In this document: one piece after another, positions 3,565 through 61,622 of the stretch | Position numbering within the stretch: the stretch's first letter is position 1 | Layout of the letters: the number at the start of each line of letters is the position of its first letter | Origin: a virus | Virus record (IMG/VR): IMGVR_UViG_3300032163_000005 | Span: 30,024-94,023 of that record | Strand: one strand, 5' to 3' | Length of the DNA stretch: 64,000 bases | Translations under genes and position numbers: made by a program | Notes under the pieces: generated by a model | Told to the model about the DNA's origin: nothing | Databases searched by the model: none | Seen by the model: only the letters and a program-made list of their open reading frames with translations

Positions 3565-4680
3565 TCAAACCACCGTAATATTGGCCAAAGTCGTTCGGAT
3601 CGTCTGCCCTGTTGTGGGCACGAGGTCACCGGTTGGCGTGACGATGGTGCTGTCGTTCACGATGAGTCCATCCTCGACGTAACGCTGCAAAACAGAGTTG
3701 AGCTCCGCGCGGTAGAGCGTCCCATTGACCGGAAGGCTGTTCACGAAGACTTCAACAGCGGCTTTGATGTTGTCAGTGAGTGTCGCTGTGTCGATGTTGG
3801 CGCGGAATGTCAGATGAAGGCTGATGTTGACGATGAGCGGAACAGATGTGGACACGAGAACCTGGATGCCCCCCGCGCGATATTCGTTGAGCGCGGCGTA
3901 AACGAGACTCGCGAGTTGATCAGAAGCAACGCCCGACGAATCAGAGATGAAGAGCTGAACAAGTCGCGCTGGCTGCCCGCCTGTCGACAAGACTTCGATC
4001 GCCATCGCTGAGACGACACCAGGAACCGTCTTCGCACCAAACTCGATGGCTGCGAGAATCCCGCGTCGTGCGGTCCGCCAGAAATCTCGCAAACGGTTTT
4101 TGAACGTCTCGTTGTCTTCGGCATCTTCACCACCCGCTGTCGCCGCTGCGTTGATGACAGTGAGCGTGCGATCGAAGAGATCACCGGGACTCGAGAACCG
4201 TCGAATGTTCTCTTTGTCGACCTGCGTTGCTTTACCTGCGACCACGGCGCGAACATCGGCGCGTGATACAAGATCCAACACACCAAACGATGCCGTCGTT
4301 GTGGTGATGTACTCAACGCCTGTAAGCGTTCCAAGCTTCGTTCCAATGGGAACCGACCCTGCTCCACCCGCCACTGTCACGCGCGAGATGGTGACCTCTC
4401 CAAGCGCAGGAGAGGCGCCCTTCCTGAGCTCTTGGTAGCGATCAAACGCGTACCGATCCAGGTCTTCATCCGTCTCGCACCCATCGAGCGTGAGAGCGGC
4501 TGTTCGTCCACCGAGTTGCGCGATGCACGCCGCTGCGAGGATGGCTGAAGTCCCCGCGATGATGTTGGACTCCGAGCCTTCGATGTTGACCTGGTTGGGA
4601 TCGATCTTTGTGTTGCGCGACGTGACATAGTCACGTGCGAGCGTAAATAATTGGCTGCGCGTCGGAAGGTCGGGAGGCAT
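3565..4680 (-). CDS. baseplate J-like protein
   Basis: GGEDAEDNETFKNRL and VPGVVSA motifs, 371 aa, synteny. Confidence 0.9.
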   Translation of the reverse strand: MPPDLPTRSQLFTLARDYVTSRNTKIDPNQVNIEGSESNIIAGTSAILAAACIAQLGGRTAALTLDGCETDEDLDRYAFDRYQELRKGASPALGEVTISRVTVAGGAGSVPIGTKLGTLTGVEYITTTTASFGVLDLVSRADVRAVVAGKATQVDKENIRRFSSPGDLFDRTLTVINAAATAGGEDAEDNETFKNRLRDFWRTARRGILAAIEFGAKTVPGVVSAMAIEVLSTGGQPARLVQLFISDSSGVASDQLASLVYAALNEYRAGGIQVLVSTSVPLIVNISLHLTFRANIDTATLTDNIKAAVEVFVNSLPVNGTLYRAELNSVLQRYVEDGLIVNDSTIVTPTGDLVPTTGQTIRTTLANITVV

Positions 4681-25696: not shown

Positions 25697-26383
25697 TTAC
25701 TGTGTGCCGGAATCGCCTGTGAGGAGCGCATCCACGTCCGTTGTGGGCACCGTTGAGAACTTCACACGTGCTTGCGTGACTGCATCTGCAGCCGCGAAAG
25801 TCACCGTCGACTTGTCCAGGTTGAGACGCGCTTGTCCCGCCGCGGGAGCTCCTGCACCCGGAACGAGAACGATCTTCTTGCCGACCGACGTGCCGATCGT
25901 CGCCTCGACTTCGAGAAGATTGATGACACCCTGCCCCGTGAACTGCGAAGGGAGCGTGAGGACGTTGGCGGCAACCGCGAGAGTTGTCTCCTGAATGTCC
26001 TGCTTCTCGGGCTGGTAGACAACATCGACGCTCGTGATGGCATCCGCGGCCAACGTAACGATGTCGCCATTGGGGCCGACTGCGATCTGTCCCGTTGCTG
26101 GCGTGGTGCCGTATGCGACCACGGCAAGCTCTCCCTGCCCCGCCGTCGCTGTCCGAGCGTACGCGCGATGAATGTTGTGAGCTTTCGCGTCATCCGGAAG
26201 AACGAGCGCGAGAAGCGTTGCGAGACTGTACGAGCTCGCCACAGGGGTCTTCTTGCGAAGGAATGTTGTGCCTGCACGCAACACAGAGCCAACCTTGATC
26301 GTCCGGAATTTGTCCGGAAGTGTGTTGGGGTTGGCGTTGTCGAGTGTCGACTTGAGAGAAGTTGCGCTGATTCCAATGGTCAT
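25697..26383 (-). CDS. virion structural protein (possible head decoration)
   Basis: 228 aa, Ala/Thr/Val-rich, GGAGG RBS, internal duplication (TPATGQIAV / APAAGQARL). Confidence 0.6.
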   Translation of the reverse strand: MTIGISATSLKSTLDNANPNTLPDKFRTIKVGSVLRAGTTFLRKKTPVASSYSLATLLALVLPDDAKAHNIHRAYARTATAGQGELAVVAYGTTPATGQIAVGPNGDIVTLAADAITSVDVVYQPEKQDIQETTLAVAANVLTLPSQFTGQGVINLLEVEATIGTSVGKKIVLVPGAGAPAAGQARLNLDKSTVTFAAADAVTQARVKFSTVPTTDVDALLTGDSGTQ

Positions 26384-26450: not shown

Positions 26451-26487
26451 GCCGAGAGATGAAGCCCTCTCACTAGCTTTGATCTAC
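26451..26487 (-). CRISPR. solitary degenerate copy of the CRISPR repeat
   Basis: 26454..26479 GAGAGATGAAGCCCTCTCACTAGCTT is identical to the array repeat over 26 nt, followed by TGATCTAC versus GATCCAC; same orientation as the array. Confidence 0.9.
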
Positions 26488-59382: not shown

Positions 59383-59862
59383 GTTGAGAGATGAAGCTCT
59401 CTCACTAGCTTGATCCACCGGTGTTCCTGTCGAGGGGACCAACTACTTCCACTACTCGTTGAGAGATGAAGCCCTCTCACTAGCTTGATCCACGGATCAC
59501 CCACTCGGGATCGTCCGCGTCGAGCGCAAGTTGAGAGATGAAGCCCTCTCACTAGCTTGATCCACGAAACCCAGTGCGAGGCGAACGTGTGGCGCAGATC
59601 GTGGTTGAGAGATGAAGCCCTCTCACTAGCTTGATCCACCTTCTCGGGCTCGAGCCCCATCGCTTCGGCCTCTTCGCGTTGTTGAGAGATGAAGCCCTCT
59701 CACTAGCTTGATCCACAGATGGATGCTCGCCGCGTTGGTACACGCAATTGCTTGTTGAGAGATGAAGCCCTCTCACTAGCTTGATCCACCCGATTCGCGG
59801 AGTGTCCATCTCTCACCCTCTTGAACGTTGAGAGATGAAGCCCTCTCACTAGCTTGATCCAC
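59383..59862 (-). CRISPR. CRISPR array, 7 x 36-nt repeats GTGGATCAAGCTAGTGAGAGGGCTTCATCTCTCAAC, 6 spacers of 36-41 nt
   Basis: Repeats start (plus coordinates) at 59383, 59458, 59530, 59604, 59681, 59754, 59827. TGAGAG/CTCTCA stem. The single variant repeat at 59383 marks the trailer, supporting minus orientation. Confidence 0.98.
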
Positions 59863-59881: not shown

Positions 59882-61375
59882 TCATTCCGCAGCATTCAAC
59901 TCCGGTTCGCGAGAGGTGGCAACCATCCGAAGATGATCCCCCGTTCCGATTCCATCAGCATTCTTTTTCTCTTTTCGTTTTGATACTTTGCGCGTGCGAG
60001 CACGAGGGGGGTTTCCATCACCAATCCACCGCTCGCTTTGATAGCGGAGAACCCGTGCGGCATTTTCATCCTGATGATGCTCGGCCCCGCACTCACATTT
60101 CCAGCGAAGCGCTGGACCAACCTTTTCTGCACGAATCAACCCGCACGATGAACAAGTCATTGTAGTGAATGCACTTGGAAGCCAATCAACACGAGCTGCC
60201 CCAAACCGTTGCAGGATGACGGTTTGGAGAATGTGTATGGCCGCACTCGAGCGCCATCGTTCAAGTGATGCTGTGTCGCCTTCTCCGACCCAAGCTTGCA
60301 TGGGCATGTCTTCAAGTGCGACGTATCGATATTTTCGCGCAAGTGCATCTGCGAATCGTTGGTAGGCATCAAGTCGGCGTCGAATAGCTCGATCTCGGAC
60401 ACCTGCTTCGATGTCTTCGAGATGGCGATCACGTTCCCGCCACCACAGTGCACCTAGATCTTGAGTCGTGAGCGCGATCCGTCGCATGCGCTCTTTGTCC
60501 TTCCAACGAAGCGCATGCTGCGCACCGGGAAGCTGTGCTTCCGATACATGTCGTTTGGCTTCGTCAAAATTGACATCTCGTATGCTCCGGATCGAATCGG
60601 AATATTGGAACGCCCGGATCGTATCGATGTGGAGAGACCCGACATCAACTACACCGTTCTCTTCTCCGTCGTAGGTCGCCACGAGCATGCCGAGCTCACC
60701 ATTTCTTCGCCAACCGACGTCTACACCGACAATGCCCAACCCAATGTCCTTTTTCCTATCAGGCTCAAATTCGATGGTGACCAACGCTTCCCAACGAAAT
60801 CGATGTCCCGAGCGCGTTCGTTGAACAGCAACTTGTTTGACAACAGCGCCATCCGGGAAATCCCGATGAAGTTTGATGGGCCATGTGATCGTTTGGCCAG
60901 CCGCCAGCGCGCCAACATGGATGGTGAGCTCGGCGTGTCGTCTGGCATTGAGGCTTGTGAGAGAAATACGTTTGCTCGTCGTCCAATCCAACGCTGGAAA
61001 TTGAGCTCGCGAATGAATCTCTCCGCCAATGGATCCTGTGCCATCCCAATGCTGCATCTTGATTGGATCAAGACGACTCGCTTTGCTCGCTGAGAGCATT
61101 GCAGCCTCAATAAGCCAATAAGTACCCGCGTCGAGTAGATGACCCCTACGTCGTCGTGCCCCCCGGATCCTCTCATTCTGAGTTTGATGAGTGAACGCCA
61201 TGACATGAGATGCATCATCCTTGCTCTCAAGGAGTGTGCGAAAATCTCGTTTGGCCGCGTTGTAAATCCGTCGCAACTCTTCACGATAGAGCCACGCTTG
61301 CCCGAGCAATTGAAGGGCCCGGTCCATTTCTTTGGGAGCCCGGCATCCGAATTTGTAGACCCTATTTTCAATCAT
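59882..61375 (-). CDS. cas12: compact type V CRISPR effector, Cas12m (V-U1)-like, 497 aa
   Basis: RuvC-I VGVDVGWR, RuvC-II VALED, Zn finger CSSC...CEC, RuvC-III QDENAA; WDGTG and LHR.FP motifs recalled from Cas12m; AAGGA RBS before ATG 61375; array 19 nt downstream. Confidence 0.85.
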   Translation of the reverse strand: MIENRVYKFGCRAPKEMDRALQLLGQAWLYREELRRIYNAAKRDFRTLLESKDDASHVMAFTHQTQNERIRGARRRRGHLLDAGTYWLIEAAMLSASKASRLDPIKMQHWDGTGSIGGEIHSRAQFPALDWTTSKRISLTSLNARRHAELTIHVGALAAGQTITWPIKLHRDFPDGAVVKQVAVQRTRSGHRFRWEALVTIEFEPDRKKDIGLGIVGVDVGWRRNGELGMLVATYDGEENGVVDVGSLHIDTIRAFQYSDSIRSIRDVNFDEAKRHVSEAQLPGAQHALRWKDKERMRRIALTTQDLGALWWRERDRHLEDIEAGVRDRAIRRRLDAYQRFADALARKYRYVALEDMPMQAWVGEGDTASLERWRSSAAIHILQTVILQRFGAARVDWLPSAFTTMTCSSCGLIRAEKVGPALRWKCECGAEHHQDENAARVLRYQSERWIGDGNPPRARTRKVSKRKEKKNADGIGTGDHLRMVATSREPELNAAE

Positions 61376-61433: not shown

Positions 61434-61622
61434 TCACTCTTCCGCCTCCTGCATCTTCGCTTCGAAGTCCCTGAGCTCCGGTGCTGGCTTGTGATTCGTT
61501 TTGAAGATCTCGCAGATCCACTCGAACGCATCTTGATAGGTGCCATCACCCGCACGAACAATGTCTGCGACTCGCGCCCATGCTTTGGCGTTACCACTGA
61601 GAATGCGCTGTTCAAAATTCAT
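61434..61622 (-). CDS. small hypothetical protein upstream of cas12
   Basis: 62 aa, ATG start. Confidence 0.55.
   Translation of the reverse strand: MNFEQRILSGNAKAWARVADIVRAGDGTYQDAFEWICEIFKTNHKPAPELRDFEAKMQEAEE

Follow-up and report, generated by a model that had tools for sequence, protein, structure and literature searches.

A compact Cas12m-like effector in a complete phage genome

We analyzed a small CRISPR effector gene and its adjacent array in the IMG/VR virus record IMGVR_UViG_3300032163_000005. The window, that is, the whole 64,000-nucleotide stretch analyzed, covers bases 30024–94023 of this 94,023-bp record, which carries direct terminal repeats and has a CheckV completeness rating of 100%. 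The cas12m-like effector and its array are phage-borne, on a complete phage genome of about 94 kb. The effector is a real, well-conserved and unusually small variant of the known Cas12m family (type V-M). The two main features of the locus, in window positions, are as follows.

59882..61375, minus strand: cas12m-like effector gene, 497 amino acids plus stop codon by translation
59383..59862, minus strand: CRISPR array reading in the direction of the gene, with seven repeats of 36 nt and six spacers of 36–41 nt

The first repeat of the array starts 19 nt past the effector stop codon. We placed the effector start at the ATG at 61375, because 24 aligned homologues begin at the same M..NRVYKFG strand. 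A TTG start at 61615, which would give a 577-amino-acid reading, was rejected because its additional 80 codons lack conservation and run into another open reading frame (ORF), of 62 amino acids. That ORF (61434–61622, minus strand) lies immediately upstream of the effector gene and has no family match. Neither Cas1 nor Cas2 was found in the whole 94-kb virus genome. No anti-repeat that would point to a trans-activating CRISPR RNA (tracrRNA) was detected in the 8 kb around the effector locus, within about 4 kb of it.

Assignment to the Cas12m family

A search of 5.8 billion proteins returned about 45 relatives sharing 45–61% identity with the effector, nearly all of them 490–540 amino acids long and metagenomic. 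They make up a clade, and a clear gap in E-value, from 1e-45 to 1e-31, separates it from every other V-M-like cluster. Relatives in IMG/VR were distant only (23–30% identity), and the scan used for GTDB genomes found no close relative. Sequence searches of the PDB gave Cas12m chains as the best matches, namely 23vw (577 amino acids; single sequence E = 1.6e-21, family profile E = 7e-45) and 23vu, UnCas12m4a (single sequence in phmmer E = 4.5e-13, family profile in hmmsearch E = 3e-22), while TnpB matches were marginal only. MmCas12m2 and GoCas12m were not found by these searches (E up to 10 for the single sequence and up to 0.01 for the family profile), and no paper under the name 'Cas12m4' was found in the literature. 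The gene for MsCas12m was recovered by tblastn of plasmids, from pMESIL02 of Allomeiothermus silvanus; the effector is 30% identical to its product over residues 163–443, with the three catalytic positions aligned.

An AlphaFold2 (AF2) model built on the family alignment reached a predicted local distance difference test (pLDDT) score of 85.9 and a predicted template modelling (pTM) score of 0.74. Structural comparison with VIA-align placed Cas12m2 first (8hhm; Z 23.5, 444 residues aligned, root mean square deviation 3.1), followed by GoCas12m (Z 22.0) and a third match from the Cas12m2/GoCas12m set (Z 21.8). ISDra2 TnpB scored Z 20.7 over 339 residues, Cas12f about 18 (17.5–18.5) and Cas12p about 14 (13.9–14.3). 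The RuvC domain is C-terminal and split by a zinc-finger TNB domain, with three conserved RuvC motifs, and the sole Pfam match on the effector is the Cas12f1-like TNB zinc finger.

Other identities were considered. TnpB was rejected because the effector scored 35.3 bits against a cut-off of 100 for NF040570 and 30.8 against 350 for NF038280, and because a CRISPR array follows the gene. Cas12p is defined by a thioredoxin-binding insertion in its recognition (REC) lobe; the REC lobe of the effector consists of three helices with no beta insertion. Cas12f (type V-F) works as a dimer that depends on a tracrRNA; its chains scored below Cas12m in the structural comparison, and the search for an anti-repeat around the locus found none. 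Casdelta, at 867–936 amino acids, was dismissed on size. Because the sequence matches, the fold matches, the identity to MsCas12m and a repeat that resembles the Cas12m CRISPR RNA (crRNA) scaffold all agree, the effector is a member of type V-M by sequence, fold and repeat RNA. The first-pass annotation, made from the sequence alone, had likewise read it as a miniature relative of Cas12m.

A shortened recognition lobe

61076..61327, minus strand: reduced REC lobe, residues 17–100; three helices in the AF2 secondary structure (residues 17–50, 56–76 and 83–100)

The conserved WDGTG motif opens at W110, so that 109 residues precede it, in agreement with the roughly 110 given in the first-pass annotation. 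As a measure of the REC lobe we counted the residues that separate the N-terminal strand from the WDGTG position. This distance is 103 in the effector and ranges from 98 to 151 in its clade, whereas the 136 relatives outside have a median of 169.5; it is 141 in MsCas12m and 99 in an outgroup TnpB aligned in the same way. In Cas12m2, the REC2 insertion is a long coiled coil that reads the heteroduplex distal to the protospacer-adjacent motif (PAM) (PMC10442227). In the AF2 model of the effector, the first two REC helices form a short hairpin at the place of this coiled coil, and clade members with 25–30 extra residues carry the insert at the tip of this hairpin. The best structural match, 8hhm, is an intermediate state of Cas12m2 in which residues 53–120 are not modelled (PMC10442227).

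The long coiled-coil REC2 insertion, described by Omura et al. as characteristic of Cas12m, is not present in the effector. The model and the alignment thus bear out the shortened REC region proposed at first pass, and the refuting outcome named there, an alignment in which the REC insertion is present, did not arise. As modelled, the REC2 coiled coil is cut to a stub, and the predicted REC lobe is about the size of that of TnpB. Since REC2 length varies among Cas12m proteins, changing state at least 22 times over the tree, a short REC lobe does not exclude membership of the family.

Catalytic triad, zinc finger and C-terminal tail

60719–60721, minus strand: RuvC-I Asp219 (GVDVGWR), codon checked; D in 40 of 41 clade members, N in one
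60311–60313, minus strand: RuvC-II Glu355 (ALEDM), codon checked; invariant in the 24-homologue alignment; aligns with the E of MsCas12m
60068–60070, minus strand: RuvC-III Asp436 (HHQDENAA), codon checked; invariant in the 24-homologue alignment; MsCas12m and PDB 23vw both have D at the aligned position
60089..60154, minus strand: TNB zinc finger C408, C411, C427 and C429 (Pfam PF07282, E = 4e-9); CCCC in nearly all relatives
59885..60019, minus strand: C-terminal tail, residues 453–497; basic linker, then the conserved end motif IATGD..MVVT.R.P...AAE-COOH

The acidic triad noted at first pass in the motifs VGVD, ALED and QDEN is intact and conserved. Nor are the triad and the small build chance features, for the roughly 45 relatives retain them. 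It is also widespread: 162 of the 186 best relatives of at least 400 amino acids carry D-E-D. Because D-E-D is the default state of the family, the triad says little about nuclease activity. A position in the zinc-finger domain, the arginine before W-x-C, is catalytically important in Cas12f and Cas12a. TnpB sequences in the profile alignment carry R at this position, which is R in about 3 of 24 clade members and hence not conserved.

The basic tail after RuvC-III, estimated at first pass as about 50 residues, comprises 45 residues with 11 K/R and 7 D/E, and is disordered in the AF2 model (pLDDT 33–55). The terminal AAE occurs in 40 of 48 family proteins and is absent from MsCas12m; 33 of 141 other V-M-like clusters end in ..AE. 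Across the relatives, the C-terminal peptide follows the pattern ..TAR....(N)AAE-COOH after a basic linker. It may be a docking or regulatory peptide.

CRISPR array, repeat RNA and spacers

We compared 23 repeat variants, taken from the window and from three homologous metagenome loci (L011–L013), the only ones with genomic context. The repeat forms a 6-bp stem and a 5-bp pseudoknot, with 96.8% pairing over the 23 variants. Seven of the 11 repeat pairs show changes on both sides, that is, compensatory changes; slid controls were 34–50% paired, and none of 500 shuffles reached the observed pairing or covariation score. As the crRNA scaffold of Cas12m2 is a pseudoknot plus stem (PMC10442227), the repeat of the effector matches this scaffold. 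The repeat core had no exact match in IMG/VR. The array of L013 is degenerate, with compensatory stem changes.

59566..59603, minus strand: spacer 4; in crRNA sense it encodes HDLRHTFASHW, the most conserved box of tyrosine integrases

Near matches to spacer 4, with 1–3 differences in the first 33–36 nt, were found in integrase genes of one IMG/VR contig and three metagenome-assembled genomes (MAGs; together the match set L020–L023), the MAGs being one Kofleriaceae, one labelled deltaproteobacterium and one unclassified. All four protospacers carry a 5' TTC flank. Type V-M effectors take a T- or C-rich 5' PAM, and the flank would fit a 5'-TTN PAM, but TTC is also the conserved Phe codon before the box. 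Among GenBank phages, only spacer 4 was matched, weakly, in phage integrase genes. Outside the array, the genome of the phage itself contains no match to any spacer. That the nearest matches lie in Myxococcota or 'deltaproteobacterial' MAGs gives a hint at the host range of the phage or of its rivals.

Comparison with known systems

MsCas12m of Allomeiothermus/Meiothermus silvanus (WP_013159911, 536 amino acids; PMC11013384) shares with the effector the D-E-D triad, the CCCC zinc finger and the above 30% identity, which extends across WED, RuvC and TNB. It also shares a 36–38-nt repeat with a stem and a GGCTT-type loop, the same repeat layout, and an adjacent array with no cas1 or cas2. The two systems differ in that the effector without its tail is about 85 residues smaller, has the shorter REC lobe and has a segment from RuvC-I to RuvC-II that is about 30 residues shorter. 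The effector in turn adds the 45-residue basic tail ending in AAE, which MsCas12m does not have, and is carried by a phage instead of a plasmid.

MmCas12m2 (PDB 8HHL, 8HHM and 8HIO) and GoCas12m (8PM4) are the best structural matches (Z 21–23.5, 432–445 residues aligned). They share with the effector the bilobed WED/REC/RuvC/TNB build and the pseudoknot-plus-stem crRNA scaffold; a 5'-TTN PAM, for the effector a candidate, would be a further common feature. Their triad is H-D-D, in contrast to D-E-D in the effector, and the sickle-like REC2 coiled coil of Cas12m2 (approximately residues 53–120) is reduced in the effector to the hairpin stub. The closest solved sequences are PDB 23vw ('CRISPR-associated DNA-binding protein Cas12m') and 23vu/23vv (UnCas12m4a, 614 amino acids), which share D-E-D and WDGTG. 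Compared with the effector, 23vw has about 80 more residues ahead of WDGTG, and in the alignment the REC hairpin of the effector family is interrupted by a gap of about 38 residues.

TnpB (ISDra2, PDB 8H1J and 8EXA), the ancestor of Cas12 encoded by transposons, shares a REC lobe of similar size, the core fold (Z 20–20.7), an N-terminal YKF-type strand, D-E-D and the zinc finger. In contrast, the effector is tied to a CRISPR array and not to an omega-RNA or transposon ends, and about 100 further residues align to Cas12m (444 versus 339).

Phage-encoded relatives are also known. MvCas12m of myxophage MV-1, a 610-amino-acid protein described in a 2026 preprint (bioRxiv 10.64898/2026.09.14.751636), is likewise phage-encoded, has D-E-D and an array beside its gene, and lacks both adaptation genes and a tracrRNA. 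Both MvCas12m and the Cas12m-like proteins that we found in IMG/VR (L001–L010) differ from the effector in length (575–650 amino acids) and in having a full-length REC lobe (156–183), at 23–30% identity. At least 10 IMG/VR contigs carry typical-length D-E-D relatives, with arrays at two of three checked. Two arrays of such phage contigs, whose effectors are 575–640 amino acids long (L005:7485–7814 and L006:10317–10648), have repeats like those of MsCas12m. Type V-M systems on phages thus seem to be common, which runs against a recent claim of a 'first report'. Genes for the large terminase subunit (TerL) and a ParB-like protein adjoin the effector locus in the window. These neighbours and the small ORFs have no homologues in loci L001–L013, so the cassette travels between unrelated elements.

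Proposed function

We propose that the effector is a secondarily miniaturised type V-M protein that acts as an RNA-guided DNA binder and silencer against rival mobile elements, a reading to which we give a probability of roughly 60%. Its foundations, namely family membership, the truncated REC lobe, the conserved triad, the array with its repeat RNA structure, the phage origin and the lack of Cas1 and Cas2, are directly supported by the data above; that it binds without cutting, which PAM it uses and what it targets in nature are inferred. The effector would bind crRNAs from the adjacent array, whose 5' handle would be the repeat-derived pseudoknot plus stem, with no tracrRNA. The complex would then find complementary double-stranded DNA (dsDNA) beside a short 5' PAM, possibly TTN, open an R-loop and stay bound, so that the target is left uncut but its transcription or replication is blocked. 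Mobile elements competing for the same host would be the targets, as the spacer matching a tyrosine-integrase gene suggests. The D-E-D triad may have been kept because in this family the RuvC pocket holds the displaced strand via a metal ion, or for another non-cutting role. The silencing of rival integrative elements by RNA-guided binding is the likely role, and cutting is a less likely alternative.

Several observations weigh against this proposal. The effector is at most about 34% identical to any relative outside its clade. The lost portion of REC2 clamps the displaced strand and the PAM-distal duplex in Cas12m2, and with REC2 truncated, behaviour published for orthologues of 536–600 amino acids may not transfer. 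The triad is kept more strictly inside the clade (40 of 41 full-length members) than outside it (115 of 136 relatives), which would weakly favour a retained catalytic role, the unconserved zinc-finger arginine pulling equally weakly the other way. The candidate PAM derives from four imperfect protospacers, whose TTC doubles as the Phe codon before the box. Lastly, one of the three trees described below places TnpB next to the clade, at a support of 34.

Does the triad imply cutting?

If the clade never lost nuclease activity, or regained it, the effector would be an active RNA-guided DNase, as suggested at first pass. We consider this less probable than silencing, though several observations favour it. 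In addition to the almost invariant triad, with E355 and D436 invariant, Altae-Tran et al. described V-M as showing 'gradual inactivation', and by implication some members may still be active (PMC10691335). Cas12m clades have been divided by their RuvC triad, and Omura et al. suggested that clades 3 and 4, which include D-E-D, may hydrolyse DNA (PMC10442227). Against rival DNA, moreover, a lytic phage would be better armed with a nuclease.

The experimental record nevertheless points the other way. Bigelyte et al. studied eight orthologues, four of them D-E-D, and none of the four cleaved dsDNA in an IVTT assay (transcription and translation in vitro; PMC11013384). Purified MsCas12m (536 amino acids, D274) showed no cleavage of target DNA or RNA and no collateral activity, and its D274A variant was unaffected in pre-crRNA processing (PMC11013384). 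When Omura et al. changed H-D-D to D-E-D in Cas12m2, cleavage did not return (PMC10442227). PDB 23vw, which among solved D-E-D relatives is the nearest, carries the deposition title of a 'DNA-binding protein', and the zinc-finger-domain arginine is not conserved in the clade. Since the D-E-D orthologues that were assayed did not cut, and since D-E-D is carried by the majority of relatives, the triad does not predict nuclease activity. The contrast drawn at first pass, in which D-E-D set this effector apart from characterised non-cutting Cas12m, therefore started from a wrong premise: characterised D-E-D orthologues, MsCas12m among them, bind DNA and are themselves non-cutting (PMC11013384).

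Origin of the short recognition lobe

The small REC lobe raises the question 'INTERMEDIATE or reduced', for which we built trees with the REC columns removed and with three TnpB proteins from plasmid and phage records as the outgroup. The clade itself was recovered with a support of 99–100 in FastTree and in IQ-TREE under LG+C20, and in both trees it was sister to long-REC proteins of 594–702 amino acids. This grouping had a support of 93 in FastTree and of 88 and 69 under LG+C20. In both trees the earliest branches of the clade have REC distances of 120–151, and the 103-residue forms are derived tips. Under LG+G4, IQ-TREE attached TnpB to the clade at a support of only 34, with both branches long, and the root did not resolve. 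In a tree of 177 proteins, short and long REC lobes interchange, accounting for the state changes mentioned above.

We also observed Cas12m-like proteins of 437–465 amino acids, some with N-E-D or N-D-D triads, nested in long-REC clades (P0097, P0116, P0142, P0169 and P0080). In this superfamily the recognition lobe was shortened repeatedly.

An alternative is that the clade separated at a stage when the REC2 coiled coil had yet to be inserted. It would then keep the recognition lobe, as small as that of TnpB, with which the first CRISPR-associated Cas12m started. The similar REC distances of the effector and TnpB (103 and 99), the position of the clade near the root in all three trees, the direct attachment of TnpB under LG+G4 and a TnpB structural match nearly as good as that of Cas12m (Z 20.7 versus 23.5) fit this scenario. 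We nevertheless regard it as unlikely, because the low support and long branches qualify that attachment, the site-heterogeneous LG+C20 model and FastTree both join the clade to long-REC proteins, its shortest forms are derived, and short REC lobes arise repeatedly within long-REC groups. The rooted trees thus mildly favour a secondarily shrunk long-REC Cas12m, and the first-pass suggestion of an intermediate between TnpB and Cas12m is not favoured, two of the three trees nesting the clade among long-REC Cas12m.

Two further versions are similarly doubtful. The effector could represent a CRISPR-associated Cas12m lineage that is still catalytically active despite a recognition lobe no larger than that of TnpB and a core reduced to about 450 residues. 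Alternatively, the missing REC2 might be offset by dimerising or by recruiting a partner via the C-terminal AAE.

A solitary repeat in the structural-gene module

26451..26486, minus strand: solitary CRISPR repeat copy, 33 kb from the array, in the structural-gene module

The 24-nt core of this copy is identical to that of the array repeats, where none would be expected by chance, and its 3' end reads ..CTCGGC versus ..CTCAAC. It sits in an intergenic gap before a structural gene of 228 amino acids (25697..26383). On a late transcript the copy could be processed or bound, or it could give rise to an RNA resembling a crRNA.

Repeat-like units outside a regular array were also observed in the three homologous loci (L011:300–386 and 3877–4025; L012:327–1064; L013:9503–10491). 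They are spaced 38–62 nt start to start, leaving 'spacers' of about 2–26 nt, and in L011 and L012 such units lie directly upstream of the cas gene. They resemble the regulatory mini-arrays of other CRISPR types, in which stand-alone repeats and mini-arrays are known regulators (bioRxiv 10.1101/2023.03.03.530964).

These units and the solitary repeat in a structural-gene leader would suit an effector whose main job is to regulate the phage's own genes through repeat-like units in transcripts or promoters, with immunity secondary, but this is improbable given a regular array with 36–41-nt spacers, none matching the phage itself and one matching a foreign integrase gene, and given that a scan of the window found no repeat unit upstream of its cas gene.

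Implications

Cas12m is valued as a compact, naturally non-cutting platform for base editors, CRISPR interference and epigenome editors, with characterised members of 536–614 amino acids. As an RNA-guided binder, the effector, whose core has only about 450 residues, would be a smaller scaffold. The present evidence offers no new nuclease; if the lineage were active, it would be the first cutting Cas12m and among the smallest effectors that work with a single crRNA and no tracrRNA.

The effector is also one more piece of evidence that Cas12m-type systems lacking adaptation genes are common in phages, which use them in conflicts between mobile elements. In the view of Omura et al., a TnpB-like protein became able to serve adaptive immunity through the acquisition of REC2; the length of heteroduplex that the effector reads, and whether it acts as a monomer, would bear on this idea. 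For the family as a whole, the clade shows that Cas12m tolerates the loss of most of the REC2 coiled coil while keeping its CRISPR arrays.

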